A DNA stretch of 38,957 bases from a virus (IMGVR_UViG_3300045988_085954), one strand, 5' to 3'; positions 1,053-38,957 are shown, numbered from the stretch's first letter. Made by a program: numbers and translations. Notes: a model not told the origin generated them from the letters alone.

Positions 1053-1075
1053 AGTAACTTGTGTCTCACCTATAT
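1053..1075 (-). promoter_or_regulatory. Phage-RNAP promoter copy (right-end, phiOR-like)
   Basis: Plus strand reads aacttgtgtctcacctata, which matches the core cttgtgtctcacc found upstream of the capsid, SSB, dUTPase and RNAP genes. It lies in the AT-rich non-coding region 736-1122. Confidence 0.45.
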
Positions 1076-1122
1076 GAGAGGAAAATCAATAAAAAGTGCG
1101 ATTTGTCCTCTCTAGGTGAACT

Positions 1123-2811
1123 TTATCGACCTCTGAGTTCCTTGATGTTCCTAAGGCACTTATTGGTTGGCTCTGCTCTCTTTAGGAGACCTTCGTTTAT
1201 CCAGTCCTCCAGTTCCATCTCAGAGACCTCTGGGAGCCTATCGGAATCCACATCCATGTTATCAAGCCAATAGGATGTAGCCATCGTCACGGCATCCAGA
1301 CGGTCATCATGAGCAATGGCGTTCTTATCACGACACATCCTCGTCATCTGATAAATCAACGAGTATGCCTGATTGGTCTCATAGCGTCTGTAGTCGTTCT
1401 CGATGACGCTACGGTTGACAATGAGCTTATGTCGCATGAGCACTGGTTCAAGGGTGTCGATGATGCGAAGCTCTTTCTGCTTCGTGTTCTTGACCTCTGT
1501 GATGACGCATGGATGAATCTTCGAGAAGATAGGTGTCATGACCTTCGTGAACATACCGTCACCGAAGTTTGCCTCTACGACAACCTCGTTTACCTCCCAA
1601 AACTTTGCAAGCTGTGCCATCTTCGTCAGTGTGAGGTCGCTGTAGCCTTCCTCAAATCCCCCGACATCCATGAGGAACAAGTAGCCATTCAGAGACTTCA
1701 TAATCGCGTAGGAACTCTCATCCTTGCCTCTGCCTGAGGGGTCGATAGCCATAACGGTACCCGTATACGGCATGGTCTCTGGGGAACGACTCAGAGGCGC
1801 ATAGTACATGTCCCCCTTCATGGCGACGCATGGGATGTCCTGTAGTCTCTGTTGAATACCATTTGCCCATGACCACTTCGTTGATGTCTCGTGCATGTCC
1901 AGTTCCTCTACAATGAGGTCAGCGACCTTTAGAGGGTACTTCTCATAGTCAGAGAGGTTCGTGTTCAGCATGAACTGAAGGGCGAACCCCGCACGACCAT
2001 AGGACAGCTTGCGCTTCGCAATCTCGATGTCATCGAAACGCTCTGGGTCTGTTGGTTTCCCTGCCCACTTCTCCGGGTCGCTATCGTACCTCTGGGCGAT
2101 GAAGGGTGCCAGATTGTCACCATAAGACTCCCGCTCTACCTGAGACTCCGGATAGAGGACAGGCCAGATTCTCGTGATGTAGCCACGCTGTTGCAGGGTG
2201 TTGTAAAGACTTGCCTCATTCTGGGGCGTACCAAGGTAGATAATCTGACCATTCGGCTTCAGGATAGCGTCGTACTCCTTGACAGCCTCAGCCAGCTTGT
2301 CGCGCTGTAGCTGTGTACCAGAGTTCTTCGGAACCTCTACGTCATCGGAGATAAGTAGGTCTGCACGAGTACCTGTAATCTGCCCCGTGATACCTACGGA
2401 CTTTACGGAAGGGGAAATGTCGGCCTGCGCTCCACCCACGCTGAAAAGGTTCTGGGTGTCTAGCTGTGTCTTGTCGGCCTTCATGTCCTCAAGGAAAGGA
2501 ATGGTATGGATAATGCTCTTGATGAAGCGAGCATTTGCGTCAGCACGGTCTCCTGAGGCTGAAATAATCAAGACCTTTAGGTCTCTATCAGACCACAGTC
2601 TCCATACCGCATAGGCGCATGTCAGGAAGCTCTTTGCCACGCCACGGAACCCTTGAATAATCACACGGTCAGAGGGAGGGTTCTGTAGAAACTGCGCAAT
2701 GTCTACCTGAATCGGGGTTGGCTTCGGGAGACCAATGGACTTCCATACGATGTATACGAAAGCCCAAAAGTTCTCTCTTGCCTTGTCAATATCCTTCTGA
2801 GACCAATTCAC
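1123..2811 (-). CDS. Terminase large subunit (T7 gp19-like DNA maturase B)
   Basis: 562 aa, the last large gene of the late block, with an ATPase N-terminal half and a nuclease C-terminal half as in T7 gp19. It follows the small terminase. Confidence 0.85.
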   Translation of the reverse strand: MNWSQKDIDKARENFWAFVYIVWKSIGLPKPTPIQVDIAQFLQNPPSDRVIIQGFRGVAKSFLTCAYAVWRLWSDRDLKVLIISASGDRADANARFIKSIIHTIPFLEDMKADKTQLDTQNLFSVGGAQADISPSVKSVGITGQITGTRADLLISDDVEVPKNSGTQLQRDKLAEAVKEYDAILKPNGQIIYLGTPQNEASLYNTLQQRGYITRIWPVLYPESQVERESYGDNLAPFIAQRYDSDPEKWAGKPTDPERFDDIEIAKRKLSYGRAGFALQFMLNTNLSDYEKYPLKVADLIVEELDMHETSTKWSWANGIQQRLQDIPCVAMKGDMYYAPLSRSPETMPYTGTVMAIDPSGRGKDESSYAIMKSLNGYLFLMDVGGFEEGYSDLTLTKMAQLAKFWEVNEVVVEANFGDGMFTKVMTPIFSKIHPCVITEVKNTKQKELRIIDTLEPVLMRHKLIVNRSVIENDYRRYETNQAYSLIYQMTRMCRDKNAIAHDDRLDAVTMATSYWLDNMDVDSDRLPEVSEMELEDWINEGLLKRAEPTNKCLRNIKELRGR

Positions 2812-14150: not shown

Positions 14151-14170
14151 TCTATCTTGTGTCTTGCTTA
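14151..14170 (-). promoter_or_regulatory. Variant phage-RNAP promoter upstream of the gp15-like gene
   Basis: Plus strand tctatcttgtgtcttgctta; sense strand TAAGCAAGACACAAGATAGA runs directly into the ribosome-binding site, as at the DNAP-module promoter. Confidence 0.45.
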
Positions 14171-17836: not shown

Positions 17837-17872
17837 TAATAAAAAGGGAGAGAAGACACAAAGTCCTCTCCC
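17837..17872 (-). terminator. Hairpin terminator after the capsid gene (Tphi analogue)
   Basis: Stem gggagag (17845-17851) pairs with ctctccc (17865-17871) around a 13-nt loop. On the minus strand it is followed by TTTTTATT, exactly between the capsid gene and the gp11 gene. Confidence 0.55.
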
Positions 17873-33164: not shown

Positions 33165-33652
33165 TCCTTACCTGTGGAACCAAGGCCACCTTCGCCTCTT
33201 TTGGTCTTGCTAAGTTCCTTTACCTCACTAAAGGATGTCGGAACATTCTTTTCAATCATCACTTGTGCAATGCGAACACCTGCCTTGATACTGACAGGCT
33301 CACGCGCAGGATTTTCGACCAAGAGTTTCAGTTCACCCCGATAATCGGAATCAATGATTGCTACCTGATTCGCCAACCGCAGGTGACTATTGAGACCCAC
33401 AGAAGACCTCAGAAACACTTTCATGTGGTATCCTTCAGGAATCTCAAAGGCTAATCCCGTGGGAACGACGGTTGCCTTGTCGCTTGCGTTTAAGGTATGC
33501 AGATAGATGTCCTCAAGGGTACGGATGTCGAAACAGGCGGCACCATCGGTCTTGCGTTCTGGAAGACAAGCACGCTCATCCAGACGCTTAACTTTCACGA
33601 CAACATCAGCCGTAGTGCTATGGGTTATTTTAGGTTTTCTTGTAGTTGCCAC
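33161..33652 (-). CDS. dut: dUTP diphosphatase
   Basis: dUTPase motifs are present: AIIDSDYRGEL, GVRIAQ and a C-terminal RGEGGLGSTG. Confidence 0.85.
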   Translation of the reverse strand: MATTRKPKITHSTTADVVVKVKRLDERACLPERKTDGAACFDIRTLEDIYLHTLNASDKATVVPTGLAFEIPEGYHMKVFLRSSVGLNSHLRLANQVAIIDSDYRGELKLLVENPAREPVSIKAGVRIAQVMIEKNVPTSFSEVKELSKTKRGEGGLGSTGKE

Positions 33653-33697
33653 TCACAACTACCTCCTTTCATTTTCCAAGACACAAAAAGTTATGAA

Positions 33698-33722
33698 CTT
33701 CCTCTCTGTCTTGTGTCTCACT
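33698..33722 (-). promoter_or_regulatory. Phage-RNAP promoter (origin-proximal B, reads into dut)
   Basis: Plus strand cttcctctctgtcttgtgtctcactttagc. Confidence 0.55.
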
Positions 33723-33897
33723 TTAGCTAACTAAAGGATTTTGTAGTATCCTTTAGTTAATTAAAGCAACTTATAGTTTACCTTTAGGTTATTTACCTTA
33801 TGGTTATTATTTATAAAGCAATAGAGGTAGTGACCTAAGGATAAACCTATTGGTAGAAGAGGTTCCTTTTGTTACCTTATGGTATCTATTACTCTCC
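33723..33897. other. AT-rich non-coding region with iteron-like repeats between two tandem phage promoters (candidate primary replication origin)
   Basis: There is no ATG on the sense strand. Sense-strand repeats are CCATAAGGTAA (x2), CCTAAAGGTAA, CCTTAGGTCA and ACTAAAGGATA, together with the small palindromes ctttagctaactaaag and ctttagttaattaaag. The layout RNAP gene - promoter - AT-rich - promoter mirrors the T7 primary origin. Confidence 0.5.
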
Positions 33898-33922
33898 TCC
33901 TGTCTTGTGTCTCACCTACATC
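33893..33922 (-). promoter_or_regulatory. Phage-RNAP promoter (origin-proximal A)
   Basis: Plus strand ctcctcctgtcttgtgtctcacctacatc, immediately after the RNAP-gene terminator. Confidence 0.55.
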
Positions 33923-33944
33923 TTGTGGTTATTTTTATAGCAAG

Positions 33945-33985
33945 ACACAAGAAAAGAGGCTGTACATGACAACCTCTTTTTCTAA
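33945..33985 (-). terminator. Intrinsic terminator directly after the RNAP gene (early-transcript terminator), potentially bidirectional
   Basis: Stem aaagagg (33953-33959) pairs with cctcttt (33973-33979) around a 13-nt loop. On the minus strand it is followed by TTTTCTTGTG, and on the plus strand by TTTTTCT. Confidence 0.5.
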
Positions 33986-33991
33986 AACTAT

Positions 33992-36634
33992 TTATGCAAA
34001 ACAGAAATCTGATTTTGCCACTAAATCAAGGTCGAGAGTGCCAAACTTTGGTAACTCTGGTACTTCATCGAGATCATCAATAAGATAGCTCACGGACTCT
34101 AGGAATCCTGCGAGGTGATTCTGGTCTTTATAAAGACCAATAAATTCATCTCTGATAGTCTTGTAGAGACTCCCGGCATGGGCGGCATCTGTTCCGAAAC
34201 TGTCATGTATCATCATAAAGTTTCGATTGCCCTTCAGGTGCTCCGAGACCACTACCCTCTGTAGATGGCTTGCATCCATGCTATGAATGAAGTTGGGCGC
34301 TATGCCGTTCTGCTGTCTCCTATTGTCAATCTCATCGGTCTCCTCTTGATTGTAGAAGCGTACCTGAGAGCCATCAAAGCGCAACTTTATGCACTCTTGT
34401 CGCATCTTCATGTAGTTCTGCTGAACTAAGAAGCCGTTCGGCGTTGTCCATGAAACTACCTCTCCAGATTGGCAGATAAGTCTTGCAACCTTCTGCAACC
34501 ATTCCATACCTTCAACAGCCTTGACAACAGTTGTCGCTACAGCTTCCCATATCAATTTAGCCATGTAGACAGCGGCCTGATTAGTATTCAAGAATGGACT
34601 GTTGTCTGGATGGTCAAGGACATACGGGTGGATGATGTCGGTCAGCAAATTTTCCTTGAATCCATACTGCTTTGACCCATACGCCAAGGTCATTACTGAC
34701 CGCTTGCAGACCTTGCGGGTAATGCCATCCTTGCCAAACTTGATACGATTGAAGGCTACCCAATTCTGTGCGAGTGTCTTCGTTCCATACTTGTAGGAAT
34801 CGGAACCTTCTTTTTTCTCGTCCTCTGTCCCCGTCTGGACATCCTTGAGGAGCTGAACATTTACCTTATCAGCTACGATTGAATAGATGTCTTGCACCTT
34901 GTCCGAGGGTACGAGGTTTACGGCAAAACCACCTACCTCATCCCGGAGGAGGGCTGAGAAGTGTTGCAGGCCGGAGCATGTACCATCAAACGCCAAGGGC
35001 AGATTCGACATAAATCCCTTGACAGAACCACTGTTTTCTGCCTTGTAGTCATTTAGGCGTTTCCATTCGTGACAGAAGGACAAAAATTCCATCGGGTAAT
35101 CACCTTTAGACACCTCATACCACCATGTGTAACCTAGAGGGTCTTCTGCACTTGCGATAATATCGACTGTATGCTCCTTGACCCATGCTACACGGTCGGC
35201 AAATGCTATCTTGTCGTTACCTGCAAGGTTTGCGCCGTGGATAGCCATCCACTTGTCATCCCCTTCAGCCAATGGCGAAGGATTTGCGAACAGGAGCAGG
35301 GATTTCTGGATGTCATCCCCTTGCGGACTCAGCGCGGTCGGGATAGGATAGCAACGACCACGATAATCTACGTTCCACGGAAAGTAAATTTTGTCATACT
35401 CGCTGAACTTTTCGGCCACCTTGAGTGCCAAAAGGCATCTAAGGGCTTTGCTCTTGCGTGCTTCTTCCTGCTTGTAGAGGCCTACGGCTTTCTTTTTGTG
35501 CTCCTTCACTTGCTCTTCAGGCGCATCCTCTGGGAGGCGTGGGAGTGTCTGATACGGTTCCGTCCTAGGAACGCCACCGAGTTCACCACCAGACGCATAG
35601 ATTTCCTTGAGTGTCTGCAAGATAAATGGATTGATGATAAAAGGCGTATCCTGCATGGCATTGAGAGCGTCATAAACTACTCCAAGGTCAATCGCTGACA
35701 GTTTCTTATTGTAGGCTTTCAGAAACTTTGTTTTTGTCTGTACCTTCAGCCGGATGAGCTGAGTGCCTAGCACGGACTCGCCATAATAGCCTCCATCATG
35801 TGGGTCAGTCCAATGGCGCGGCGGAATAATAGTTGGCATGTAGCGGACTGCATTCGCAATCATGTGGGACTCGTTGCTTTCCCATGTAGCCTTAAACCAA
35901 TCCGTAGCATCCACAGCTTTGATATGCTTTGTCCCCCGGCCTGTGCTTACCTCCCTTTCACGAATGACATAGTAATCGGAGCCTGCAATGAGCATTTCAA
36001 GCACCTTTGCGCCTAGGACTTCTACCTGCTGATTTGACCAAGCGAGACCTACATATCCTTCCTTGTTCATGCGGTTTGTTGCATAGGCCACACGATAAGA
36101 CGAACGTACACGCTGTTCTATGCCTTTGTCCATTGACTTTTTCAGCCATTTGACATCTGTATCCTTGTTGACCTCTTCCCATTGATAGAAGCGTTCAATA
36201 TCCGCTTCTCGCTTGATTTGCATCCCAATCAGCATAGCCACATTGGATAGGGTGGTCTGTGTTGTATCATGCGACATCAACACGGCATCCATCGCCTTGC
36301 TGTGTCCGGCGAGGACTAGGAGGTCTTCCAAAGCCTCCTCTTTTTCCCGATAGATGACTAAAAGTTCTTTCATTGGCAGGAGCCAAGCGCCTTGCGTGGT
36401 CTTCTTAGGGTGCTTTGCGTCCTCTAGGAGAGCGTGGATATTCTTGCGGCATGTCTCCCATGAGTGCTTCATGAGCTTGCCTGCTAGGTGCCCTTCGCCG
36501 CCTTCTCCCTCGCGCTTTGCCTTGTCAAGAGCTTCCTTCAGGTGCTCCTCTGCTTCCTGCTTTGCCTCCGCTTCTAGGAGGAGCTCCTGTGTGTAGAGCC
36601 CTCCGTATAGCTTTTCATATTCTTCAAATTTCAT
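33992..36634 (-). CDS. Single-subunit DNA-directed RNA polymerase (T7 gp1-like)
   Basis: 880 aa. Motif A DGTCSGLQHFSA, motif C IHDSFGT and a C-terminal ...DFCFA match T7 RNAP. A TGGAGG ribosome-binding site is present. Confidence 0.95.
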   Translation of the reverse strand: MKFEEYEKLYGGLYTQELLLEAEAKQEAEEHLKEALDKAKREGEGGEGHLAGKLMKHSWETCRKNIHALLEDAKHPKKTTQGAWLLPMKELLVIYREKEEALEDLLVLAGHSKAMDAVLMSHDTTQTTLSNVAMLIGMQIKREADIERFYQWEEVNKDTDVKWLKKSMDKGIEQRVRSSYRVAYATNRMNKEGYVGLAWSNQQVEVLGAKVLEMLIAGSDYYVIREREVSTGRGTKHIKAVDATDWFKATWESNESHMIANAVRYMPTIIPPRHWTDPHDGGYYGESVLGTQLIRLKVQTKTKFLKAYNKKLSAIDLGVVYDALNAMQDTPFIINPFILQTLKEIYASGGELGGVPRTEPYQTLPRLPEDAPEEQVKEHKKKAVGLYKQEEARKSKALRCLLALKVAEKFSEYDKIYFPWNVDYRGRCYPIPTALSPQGDDIQKSLLLFANPSPLAEGDDKWMAIHGANLAGNDKIAFADRVAWVKEHTVDIIASAEDPLGYTWWYEVSKGDYPMEFLSFCHEWKRLNDYKAENSGSVKGFMSNLPLAFDGTCSGLQHFSALLRDEVGGFAVNLVPSDKVQDIYSIVADKVNVQLLKDVQTGTEDEKKEGSDSYKYGTKTLAQNWVAFNRIKFGKDGITRKVCKRSVMTLAYGSKQYGFKENLLTDIIHPYVLDHPDNSPFLNTNQAAVYMAKLIWEAVATTVVKAVEGMEWLQKVARLICQSGEVVSWTTPNGFLVQQNYMKMRQECIKLRFDGSQVRFYNQEETDEIDNRRQQNGIAPNFIHSMDASHLQRVVVSEHLKGNRNFMMIHDSFGTDAAHAGSLYKTIRDEFIGLYKDQNHLAGFLESVSYLIDDLDEVPELPKFGTLDLDLVAKSDFCFA

Positions 36635-36654
36635 ATACTTGTGCCTCCATCTGG

Positions 36655-36687
36655 TTTTTCTCTATCTTGTGTCTCACCTAAATTTGT
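36655..36687 (-). promoter_or_regulatory. Phage-RNAP promoter immediately upstream of the RNAP gene (autoregulatory), with an inverted core copy facing the plus-strand gene
   Basis: Plus strand ttttctctatcttgtgtctcacctaaatttg. Its inverted copy gtagacacaagg lies at 36695-36706, so cttgtgtct and agacacaag form a 9-bp inverted repeat with a 22-nt spacer. Confidence 0.55.
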
Positions 36688-36751
36688 ATTACATGTAGAC
36701 ACAAGGCTAACTATACAATTTGTAAAACATGTGGTAGCATGTTATAGGGTG

Positions 36752-37372
36752 ATGAAAATGGATTTTGATGAAAAAGATGAAGCTATCCGCTTTCGCCTTT
36801 CAACTAGCATGAAGAGGAAACTTCAACTCATTGCAATGCGTCGCGGTCTCAATATGTCCCAATTCATCCGCAATTACATTGAGACAATCATTAATGAGGA
36901 TGAGAATCAAGACATGCTTGCCGCGCGTGATGCTAGGTATCTAGTGAATCCAAAAGATGAGGATGAAAATCCTTATGGTTCTATTGTTTCCACGAGGGTG
37001 CCAACAGAATTGAAAACCTTGTATAATGCCTGCTGTTCCTCTAATAGCTTGAAAGCTAGCGAGCTTATACGGAACTTCATGCGCGACTATACGGAATTTA
37101 GATTGCAGATGTACCCCGGTCACCTAAGGTCTCTATCAGGGTATCTAAGCTATTTCCTGCTGTTCCTAAGGATGGCAGAGTACCACAAAGGGAAGGCTTT
37201 CAAGTCTTGCCGTATGGTACACGCAAAGAACAAGATCATACCAGATACACCTATCATAGAAAAAGTTACTGCCTGTACTTATCGCGTAAATGACATATTA
37301 GCGGACTGCTATTACATCATTGAATTTGAAGATATAACTAATGTGAATGTCTCTTTTTCTCCCTTTGACTGA
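36752..37372 (+). CDS. Tandem ribbon-helix-helix (RHH) DNA-binding protein, the only plus-strand gene
   Basis: Two RHH units: IRFRLSTSMKRKLQLIAMRRGLNMSQFIRNYIETII and IVSTRVPTELKTLYNACCSSNSLKASELIRNFMRDY, each with a beta-strand with alternating polar residues followed by two helices, then a C-terminal domain of about 90 aa. The start is ATG 36752 or 36758, after an AGGGTGA site. The gene is convergent with the early genes. Confidence 0.6.
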   Translation: MKMDFDEKDEAIRFRLSTSMKRKLQLIAMRRGLNMSQFIRNYIETIINEDENQDMLAARDARYLVNPKDEDENPYGSIVSTRVPTELKTLYNACCSSNSLKASELIRNFMRDYTEFRLQMYPGHLRSLSGYLSYFLLFLRMAEYHKGKAFKSCRMVHAKNKIIPDTPIIEKVTACTYRVNDILADCYYIIEFEDITNVNVSFSPFD

Positions 37373-37382
37373 TACCTACACA

Positions 37383-37415
37383 CGAGACACAAGCAACTTT
37401 TTACCTTGTGTCTCG
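37383..37415. other. Perfect 11-bp-stem hairpin between convergent genes, built from the phage-promoter core
   Basis: cgagacacaag (37383-37393), loop caactttttac, cttgtgtctcg (37405-37415). It sits between the RHH-gene stop (37372) and the SprT-like gene stop (37432). Confidence 0.6.
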
Positions 37416-37431
37416 CCTTGCAGGAGCTGTT

Positions 37432-37959
37432 TTATTCACCTTTCATCAATGAAAAGTGCTGATGACCACATTTACATTTCCAGTTAGTTGCATGATGGTC
37501 AGCTACGGCCTTGATAAACTTTGTCCGGCGCATGAATCGCCATGTAGCCCCACAATTATCACACTTGACCACATACCTATAGGCGATTTCATAAGCCTTA
37601 ATTGAGTGCGGAGATTTATATGTGATTTTAATGCCATAGATACTTCCGACCTTCTTTGCAAGTCCCTGCCATTCCTCATCATGCCCGGAGTCATAGGAGG
37701 CCATTGCATGGCACAGCTCGTGCAGAATAGTTTCCTTGACGGCCTCCCATCCATCTACTACACGATATGCAGAGATCCCGAGGATAAACGTAGGAGAATC
37801 ACGATATAATCTGCAATAACCATGATGATTAAAACGAGCGTTGAAGTCGATTTTCTCTAACTTCCTGATGGAAAACCCCTGCTCTTTTAGCTCCTTGATA
37901 TACTGCATGGTCATCGCCTGCACGCGCTTTTTAGCCTCCGGCGTCCATTTTGCTTTCAT
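37432..37959 (-). CDS. SprT-like Zn metalloprotease with C-terminal Zn-ribbon
   Basis: HExxH motif ILHELCHAMASYD in a SprT-like context, plus C-terminal CDNCG...CKCGH. Confidence 0.65.
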   Translation of the reverse strand: MKAKWTPEAKKRVQAMTMQYIKELKEQGFSIRKLEKIDFNARFNHHGYCRLYRDSPTFILGISAYRVVDGWEAVKETILHELCHAMASYDSGHDEEWQGLAKKVGSIYGIKITYKSPHSIKAYEIAYRYVVKCDNCGATWRFMRRTKFIKAVADHHATNWKCKCGHQHFSLMKGE

Positions 37960-38069
37960 CTGTCATCATTCCTTTCAGACATAAGTAGTAACTCCGGAAA
38001 CCTGATGGCTTCCATGAGTGCCTTATGGTTGCCCATAAGACACCTAGCAAACCACAGATTACTTAATTT

Positions 38070-38892: not shown

Positions 38893-38957
38893 CTGTGACT
38901 AGCCCGGCTAGCCTCCCTTTGGTTACCTAAGGACGATGGCAACAACCAGACTTGCTA
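38893..38957. repeat. 65-bp exact direct terminal repeat (copy 2)
   Basis: Identical to 1-65. Confidence 0.8.

Follow-up and report, generated by a model that had tools for sequence, protein, structure and literature searches.

The RNA polymerase locus of an uncultured gut phage

The DNA analysed here (38,957 nucleotides, hereafter called the window) carries a sequence of ~65 bp that is common to both of its ends (positions 1-65 and 38893-38957), and this overlap indicates a circularly closed assembly with a complete genome of ~38.9 kb. The long open reading frames (ORFs) all lie on the minus strand. They include the gene for a T7-type single-subunit RNA polymerase (RNAP) of 880 aa (33992-36634, minus strand), which was recognized by its match to the Pfam model RNA_pol (1.9e-98) together with RPOL_N. 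The protein is ~40% identical to the RNAPs of cultured T7-like phages, and a DNA search with positions 33500-38000 gave no match to cultured phages. Upstream of the RNAP gene are a phage-type promoter, a divergent gene for a ribbon-helix-helix (RHH) protein, and a stem-loop that follows a SprT-like gene. Downstream are a terminator-like hairpin, a non-coding region between two promoters, and the leader of a dUTPase operon. A σ70-type scan revealed no convincing host promoter for the RNAP gene, and Rfam and tRNA scans of the window returned no matches.

The relatives used for comparison come from human-gut metagenomes (382 RNAP homologues were listed, of which 12 were looked up). Many of them carry an extra Rha/ANT-type (antirepressor-like) gene, not present in the window, between the RNAP stop codon and the terminator. 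This gene is found downstream of the RNAP gene in L001 (6640-7430) and in L007, L033, L077, L079, L080, L082, L083 and L087. In L086 (70% RNAP identity), whose promoter core GAGACACTATA is nearer to that of SP6, a tyrosine-integrase gene occupies positions 1-447, ~2 kb upstream of the RNAP gene, and the phage group to which this relative belongs may in part be temperate. A comparison of L072 and L073 with L004 and L005 shows 90-92% identity of the major capsid protein in genomes whose RNAPs are only 66-69% identical to that of the window, which points to mosaic exchange between early and late modules.

Phage-type promoters and inverted copies of their core

The phage promoter, on the minus strand, reads tTAGGTGAGACACAAG directly followed by ACAGAGA (22-23 nt), and the core singled out in the first-pass annotation, GAGACACAAG, lies within it. 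By analogy with SP6, whose promoter is ATTTAGGTGACACTATAGAAGAG, we take the last G of the promoter to be position +1. As is typical of promoters for SP6/T7-type RNAPs, the forward sites span 23 bp, are SP6-like, and stand in front of gene blocks. A weight matrix (PWM) assigns 30-41 bits to seven strong promoters and 20-21 bits to a weaker site at 14156. The promoter before the RNAP gene (36661-36683, minus strand, covering -17 to +6 with +1 = G at 36666) scores 39-41 bits. The first promoter 3' of the RNAP gene (33899-33921, minus strand, +1 at 33904) scores 32-33 bits, and the second promoter of the non-coding, origin-like region (33705-33727, minus strand, +1 at 33710) scores 39-40 bits. Single forward cores are present at 1058, 18956, 27283 and 33710, and copies with one mismatch at 14156 and 32706. 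A search of the literature turned up nothing relevant on this promoter sequence or on inverted copies of promoters in T7-like phages.

Two variants of the core, GAGACACAAG and GGCACACAAG, occur among these phages, the latter in L007 and L076. L075 carries GGCACACAAG before its RNAP gene (~1290) and GAGACACAAG after it (~4074); positions -8/-7 may not discriminate between polymerases, or this segment of L075 may be recombinant. The last promoter of the window (+1 at 1058) is located within a different hairpin (1060-1140, minus strand), in which an upstream gttCACCTAgagagga pairs with tcctctcatATAGGTGag and the upstream half of the promoter constitutes the paired part.

The first-pass annotation claimed that the core recurs as inverted repeats at three points, and all three are indeed present in numbers beyond chance. 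At the RNAP promoter, CTTGTGTCT (36666-36674) and AGACACAAG (36697-36705) are separated by a 22-nt spacer. After the terminator, the same two sequences (33904-33912 and 33943-33951) are separated by 30 nt when the exact 9-mers are considered, or by 24 nt when the arms are extended by G·T pairs. Between the convergent genes, CGAGACACAAG (37383-37393) and CTTGTGTCTCG (37405-37415) form a perfect 11-bp stem with an 11-nt loop. Read on the coding (minus) strand, the inverted copies conform to the consensus (C)TTGTGTCT(C/T), which we term the anti-promoter element or Y, and the promoter cores that face two of these copies (36675-36666 and 33913-33904, minus strand) are termed Z.

With up to one mismatch, the 10-mer core occurs 19 times in the window, compared with 3.85 ± 2.1 times in shuffled sequences. 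The inverted 9-mer is observed four times (0.14 expected), and three inverted 9-mers are situated at most 60 nt from a forward core (0.002-0.004 expected); none of 2000 random sequences had at least three inverted 9-mers near a forward core. When the entire collection was scanned for CTTGTGTCT-N(8-38)-AGACACAAG, only unrelated single palindromes in other phages were detected outside the relatives. A sixth copy, found in the capsid-gene terminator loop (17854-17861), was rejected as a chance occurrence because relatives carry TTTTATGTCT or ATATTGTCT there. The heptamer TGTGTCT occurs 14 times on the sense strand of the whole window (~4 expected under a third-order model); several of these copies are intragenic, and one is at 936-942, in the non-coding stretch after the last promoter. 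Two elements that had escaped the first-pass annotation, a copy of Y in an operon leader (Y') and a near-copy of the core (R), are described in the sections below.

Inverted copies lack promoter determinants

One function proposed for the inverted copies is that of divergent promoters. They would then be weak phage promoters sending transcripts antisense into the RNAP 3' end, or into the RHH or SprT-like genes, and each does match the -8 to +1 core exactly. The copy in L003 matches the promoter from -11 to +8 and reaches 18 bits, near the 20-21 bits of the weak forward site at 14156, a site that also has AGCAAGACACAAGA in common with the copy at 33951 of the window. However, the extended match of the L003 type is not conserved, and the copies in the window, unlike promoters for SP6/T7-type RNAPs, carry only positions -8 to +1 and fail the promoter model. 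Their scores are -18, -16 and -1 bits (or +4, -9.5 and -8 bits with another pseudocount), which places them between -18 and +4 bits as opposed to 30-41 bits for real promoters.

Two determinants are missing. The TAGGT block at -13 to -10 is absent, though it is as conserved as the core in forward promoters, and the upstream region as a whole (-17 to -9, tTAGGTG) yields -2 to -14 bits in inverted copies as opposed to +6 to +12 bits in real promoters. The initial transcribed region ACAGAGA (+2 to +8) is also missing from the window copies; inverted copies score -7 to -20 bits over this segment, and only the L003 copy matches it (+4.9 bits). Moreover, the RHH gene appears from its upstream sequence to have a conserved host-type promoter of its own, and in relatives without this gene the inverted copy points into the SprT-like gene in antisense orientation. 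We therefore regard divergent promoter activity as very improbable.

A conserved stem-loop after the SprT-like gene

The stem-loop that follows the SprT-like gene is composed of a 5' arm, X (GAGACACAAG, 37405-37415, minus strand), and a 3' arm, Y1 (CTTGTGTCTC, 37383-37393, minus strand), the latter being the exact complement of promoter positions -9 to +1. X is core-like but is not a promoter, since it scores only 0-5 bits with the PWM. The hairpin is retained in 17 of the 17 relatives that cover the site, and among them the Y arm (CTTGTGTCTC) is invariant while X takes the forms GAGACACAAG, GAGACGCAAG, GGGGCACAAG, GGGACACAAG, GAGGCACAAG and GAGACACAAT. Three positions of X vary, exclusively between A and G, and each lies opposite a U, such that G·U pairs are formed in minus-strand RNA. 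The same changes would create C·A oppositions on the opposite strand and within a DNA palindrome. The closing (eleventh) pair of the stem covaries among C-G, U-A and A-U.

In the corresponding alignment, 97.3% of the cells are paired, and the observed score is reached by 3 of 500 shuffled alignments, a count that (like the other shuffle controls reported here) is not a probability because the sample comprises 10-13 related sequences. Predicted folding energies are likewise strand-dependent. The window sequence gives -27.5 kcal/mol for the sense RNA versus -19.1 kcal/mol for the antisense RNA, and further sense/antisense values for X-Y are -20.3/-16.1, -19.4/-13.7, -19.6/-9.6 and -16.4/-6.9 kcal/mol, with the gap reaching up to 10 kcal/mol in L003 and L031. 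When 37383-37415 was considered as an intrinsic terminator, no U-run was found after the hairpin on either strand, and the hairpin is absent from the terminator scan.

R, one of the two additional elements, is a near-copy of the core (GAGGCACAAG, 36638-36647, minus strand) in the ribosome-binding region of the RNAP gene. This region (GGAGGCACAAGtatATG) is complementary to Y, with one G·U pair. X and R vary in parallel, as GAGACACAAG/GAGGCACAAG in the window, GAGACGCAAG/GAGGCGCAAG in L002, and GGGGCACAAG/GGGGCACAAG in L003; gene conversion or a translational switch could account for this pattern. A more distant relative, L031 (62% RNAP identity), has an isolated GGAGGGGCACAAGtcCTTGTGTCTC hairpin (GGGGCACAAG..CTTGTGTCTC) after its upstream gene (2833-2854) that is missing from its sister contig L032. 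The core of the promoter in L031 is GGTACACAAG, and the 5' arm of its hairpin is identical to the ribosome-binding region of the L003 RNAP gene.

An accessory RHH gene beside the repeats

The divergent gene (36752-37372, plus strand) encodes a tandem RHH protein of 206 aa that matches a phage repressor family over both RHH units (phrog_876, 1.9e-9, residues 3-113; the match to Pfam RHH is weak). L076, L079, L083 and L085 have homologues (28-61% identity) in the same divergent position. The gene is absent in L003, L074, L075, L077 and L080, and is internally deleted in L087. Its candidate promoter, judged by sequence, is the host-type extended -10 element TGTGGTAGCAT (36730-36740, plus strand), and TGTGnTAnnAT is found ~20-25 nt before the start codon in all five RHH homologues.

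A second proposal is that the inverted repeats are palindromic DNA operators through which a dimeric regulator (the tandem RHH protein or another) would control the RNAP and origin promoters. Two observations favour such a function: the repressor-like gene diverges from the RNAP promoter region, and at the RNAP promoter the starts of the two copies are 30 bp apart in the window and 40 bp apart in L003, a difference of one helical turn. However, L076, L079, L083 and L085 carry RHH homologues but have no inverted core beside their RNAP promoters, whereas the RHH-less relatives L003, L074, L075, L077 and L080, as well as the RHH-deleted L087, retain both the X-Y hairpin and the copy of Y after the terminator (Y3). 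The gap between Y and the core at the RNAP promoter ranges from 19 to ~95 nt, and the three start-to-start spacings in the window (21, 30 and 38 bp) are not in helical phase. In addition, the drift of X to GGGGCACAAG breaks the DNA palindrome but spares the RNA helix. An operator function for these repeats thus seems no less improbable than promoter activity.

Repeats that are specific to each genome and surround the RHH promoter make better operator candidates. The window has direct repeats of TTTGTAWWACATGT at 36683-36696 and 36719-36732 (plus strand), the second overlapping the candidate RHH promoter and the first located immediately upstream of the phage promoter that serves the RNAP gene. 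In relatives, inverted repeats particular to each genome take their place. Repeats of this kind are likelier RHH operators than are the promoter-core palindromes, and because the first TTTGTAWWACATGT copy adjoins the RNAP promoter, the RHH protein might still control that promoter through a different site. The locus thus resembles repressor-operator modules of the Arc/CopG type in that a divergent tandem-RHH gene lies by the RNAP promoter and short repeats overlap its candidate promoter. It differs in that the presence of promoter-core palindromes does not track that of the RHH gene among relatives. The RHH gene is an accessory gene that stands outside the repeat system. Of the broader claim that this phage reuses its promoter core as a regulatory palindrome, one part stands, namely that inverted reuse occurs at conserved points around the RNAP gene and is not due to chance, but neither of the mechanisms put forward for it is upheld.

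History of the repeat at the RNAP promoter

The inverted copy nearest the RNAP gene, Y2 (CCTTGTGTCTA, 36696-36706, minus strand), is located 20 nt upstream of the RNAP promoter, whose core Z is its pairing partner. This repeat (36664-36706) is limited to the window, L001, L002, L087 and L088. According to the first-pass annotation, its interpretation would be refuted by related phages that keep the forward promoters without the inverted copies, and this is the case for the 36664-36706 repeat but not for the other two.

Comparison with L074 and L087, from which the borders of the RHH cassette were set, reveals how the focal repeat relates to the hairpin farther upstream. Direct repeats, CTTGTGTCTCgtgt and CTTGTGTCTAcatgt, flank the cassette in the window, and L074 (95% RNAP identity) reads CTTGTGTCTCgtgtaatacaaatttaggtGAGACACAAG instead, which corresponds to an exact deletion between Y1 and Y2 with removal of the RHH gene. 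In L003, L077 and L080, a single Y serves as both the 3' arm of the X-Y hairpin and the inverted partner of the RNAP promoter. Because Y1 and Y2 are direct repeats that flank the RHH cassette, the hairpin at 37383-37415 and the repeat at 36664-36706 are probably one ancestral X-Y...Z unit that was split in two. The gap between Y and the RNAP-promoter core is 19, 20, 30, ~65 or ~95 nt among relatives, and in L003 and L077 the stem formed by Y and Z is 19 bp long. Trimmed Y-Z segments from the window fold with sense/antisense energies of -17.8/-12.6 and -17.6/-14.8 kcal/mol. More distant relatives whose promoter cores differ likewise carry strong hairpins in front of the RNAP promoter, built from unrelated sequence; in L005, for example, such a hairpin (z = -6.1) lies between this promoter and the last early gene.

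This history raises the alternative that the repeats are by-products of recombination whose pairing has no function, with promoter-core-like 9-10-mers acting as repeats at which cassettes come and go, the copies being the scars left behind, and Y being kept for an unrelated reason or simply through youth. The direct Y repeats around the RHH cassette and the exact deletion in L074 are as expected from such events, as is the confinement of the focal Y2-Z repeat to one sublineage. The hairpin loop of L002 is the reverse complement of that in the window, which indicates that the palindrome flips, and the isolated GGGGCACAAG..CTTGTGTCTC element of L031, lacking in its sister L032, also fits mobility of this sort. 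However, Y and Y' are invariant at 80-99% RNAP identity while loops and flanks diverge freely, the changes in X are all wobble-compatible on one strand, the closing pair covaries, and Y3 covaries with the promoter start region. On balance, a purely recombinational origin is unlikely, though it deserves more weight than either mechanism considered above.

Elements downstream of the RNAP gene

The hairpin that follows the RNAP gene (33952-33980, minus strand) has a G+C-rich stem and a U-run, as intrinsic terminators do, and its stem covaries between relatives (GAGG/CCTC versus GGGG/CCCC). The T-rich tail of this hairpin is Y3 (CTTGTGTCTTG, 33941-33951, minus strand), which abuts the terminator stem and lies ~30 nt upstream of the core of the promoter at 33904. 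The sequence TTGTGTCTTG within Y3 is invariant in 11 distinct relatives (at least 83% RNAP identity) that keep this arrangement, and L081 (86% RNAP identity) is without Y3.

Two pairing registers between Y3 and Z can be compared. The register corresponding to the originally described repeat (-8 to +1) is 93% paired but shows no covariation, and 178 of 500 shuffles reach its score. A 7-bp register, in which UGUCUUG pairs with CAAGAYA at promoter positions -3 to +4, is 96.7% paired, and 2 of 500 shuffles match it, again as a control rather than a probability. One pair in this register is G-C in four sequences, G·U in seven and A-U in one. L086, in which the promoter is changed to GAGACACTATACAG, has a post-terminator UUGUAUAG that pairs with CUAUACAG (z = -7.1). 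L007 and L076 have the promoter core GGCACACAAG with unchanged copies of Y, and one pair is lost.

The remaining element, Y' (TTGTGTCTTG, 33677-33686, minus strand, with TTGTGTCT at 33679-33686), is in the 5' leader of the dUTPase operon, 24 nt after the start at 33710, and can likewise pair with promoter positions -3 to +4. TGTGTCT of Y' is invariant in 11 distinct relatives and the sequence in between varies; the alignment of this leader reveals conservation only and is uninformative on pairing. Between the two promoters lies ~190 bp of non-coding DNA (33720-33900) with many repeats of the CCTTTAG/CTAAAGG and TAAGGT types and an AT-rich centre (ctttataaataataacc). This region is conserved in relatives and duplicated in L075, and its position corresponds to that of the T7 primary origin.

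These features bear on another explanation, in which Y is a sequence-specific signal in single-stranded form, a copy of the promoter template strand present in nascent RNA or in non-template or displaced DNA. It might serve as an RNAP pause or termination signal, or a displaced-strand hairpin might rebuild a double-stranded promoter and prime leftward DNA synthesis at the origin. Consistent with this, Y shows no variation even at positions where a helix would tolerate drift, Y3 is positioned exactly in the RNAP terminator tail, and Y stayed the same in L007 and L076 although their promoters changed. Furthermore, Y3 and Y' bracket the non-coding AT-rich region with its two promoters, positioned like the T7 primary origin. 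However, no precedent is known for such recognition by T7-type RNAPs, the X-Y hairpin and Y2 are not at an origin, and the hairpin would rebuild only promoter positions -11 to +1, with G·T pairs. A single-strand signal of either type therefore appears improbable. Still more doubtful is the specific version in which the phage RNAP itself recognizes (C)TTGTGTCT as a single-stranded copy of its promoter template strand, either to pause or terminate or, through a Y3-promoter hairpin at the origin, to prime DNA synthesis in the opposite direction.

Known signals of phages like T7 were also considered as identities for Y. The T7-type primase site is GTGTC and the class II pause signal is ATCTGTT. 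GTGTC is common on both strands of the window (73 and 77 copies), and the ATCTGTT motif does not match Y; we know of no sequence relationship between the class II signal and Y. Both candidates were rejected.

Proposed stem-loops in read-through RNA and their parallels in T7

The explanation that we favour, tentatively and from sequence comparisons, is that the inverted copies form sense-strand stem-loops in read-through mRNA. One anti-promoter element would be reused at several places, probably as a signal for RNA processing or stability around the RNAP gene. T7-type transcription continues through internal promoters, and longer transcripts for this reason contain promoter sequences. Anti-promoter elements on the coding (minus) strand would thus act in RNA rather than as DNA sites, and in read-through RNA each would pair with a nearby promoter-core-like sequence: X with Y1 after the last early gene, Y2 with Z in front of the RNAP gene, Y3 with Z in a stem stacked on the RNAP terminator hairpin, and Z with Y' in the leader of the next operon. 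Since transcripts initiated at the promoters contain neither Y2 nor Y3, these hairpins would form only in read-through RNA. Cleavage at these stems, or their action as protective hairpins, would uncouple the RNAP message from its neighbours and set mRNA ends near the promoter start. We infer that these folds arise in vivo and are acted upon by a nuclease or by the decay machinery.

The sense RNA is predicted to fold more stably than the antisense RNA at all sites and in all relatives tested. In read-through RNA, the predicted probability that the core is paired is 1.00 for the promoter at 33904 and 0.95 for that at 36666; the promoter at 33710 is intermediate (0.62), and the other five promoters have values of 0.15-0.44. 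The invariance of Y, where a plain helix could drift, suggests an additional sequence-specific constraint on this arm.

The stem-loops share several properties with the RNase III sites of T7. They are conserved as RNA on the sense strand through G·U pairs and compensatory changes, and they are intergenic and in part promoter-adjacent, since they flank the RNAP gene and overlap two promoters. Such a site typically comprises approximately two helical turns of double-stranded RNA, and the cut usually lies at an internal loop. The window stems are short (9-13 bp, with loops of 11-22 nt; 11-13 bp plus 3-4 bp beyond a bulge in the predicted folds) and extend to 19 bp in L003 and L077, whereas classical Escherichia coli RNase III substrates are longer.

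It had been suggested that T7 does nothing comparable. This is correct insofar as a search of T7 for exact inverted promoter cores found none, and the matches with one mismatch reflect partial self-complementarity of the promoter. It does not hold for imperfect copies. Upstream of the T7 φ13 promoter, UCUCCCUGUGGUGG pairs with the promoter sequence CUCACUAUAGGGAGA to form a 14-bp stem that includes G·U pairs, and we take this fold to be the location of the R13 RNase III site. The R13 cut was reportedly mapped by Dunn and Studier in 1983 and linked to this fold. In both phages, an upstream reverse complement (imperfect in T7) is predicted to pair in read-through RNA with the core and start region of the promoter, such that one of the stem-loops described here would embed a promoter in its stem as in φ13/R13. 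The phage analysed here differs by having an exact complement of 9-10 nt, and by reusing the same short element at four places. The exactness of the complement over 9-10 nt makes it visible as a DNA inverted repeat. In T7, an RNase cleavage site adjoining a promoter has been described as a common arrangement (PMC6938266).

The placement of the stem-loops offers a second parallel. They would bracket the RNAP gene: one separates it from the last early gene, and another follows it closely, amid the two promoters of the origin region. Gene 1 of T7 is similarly bracketed by the RNase III sites R1 and R1.1. However, the T7 sites are longer, irregular hairpins whose sequence is unrelated to the promoter, whereas here a terminator-like hairpin also precedes the downstream site, and the RNAP gene has a phage-type promoter of its own.

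Implications for T7-like phages

The feature extends a known arrangement and does not point to a new kind of regulation. The lineage has a new SP6-like promoter, tTAGGTGAGACACAAGACAGAGA, which is a candidate for use with its RNAP as an orthogonal expression pair. For annotating these phages it is also relevant that the repeats mark the breakpoints at which the neighbouring RHH regulator gene is gained and lost. If the stem-loop interpretation is correct, it would reveal a compact design rule for a T7-like phage, in which a short sequence complementary to the promoter core marks each place where read-through RNA has to be folded or cut, and 10-20 nt encode both the promoter and the processing signal. 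The pairing of promoters with RNase III sites known from T7 would then extend to a human-gut lineage that has not been cultured and shares only ~40% RNAP identity with cultured phages.
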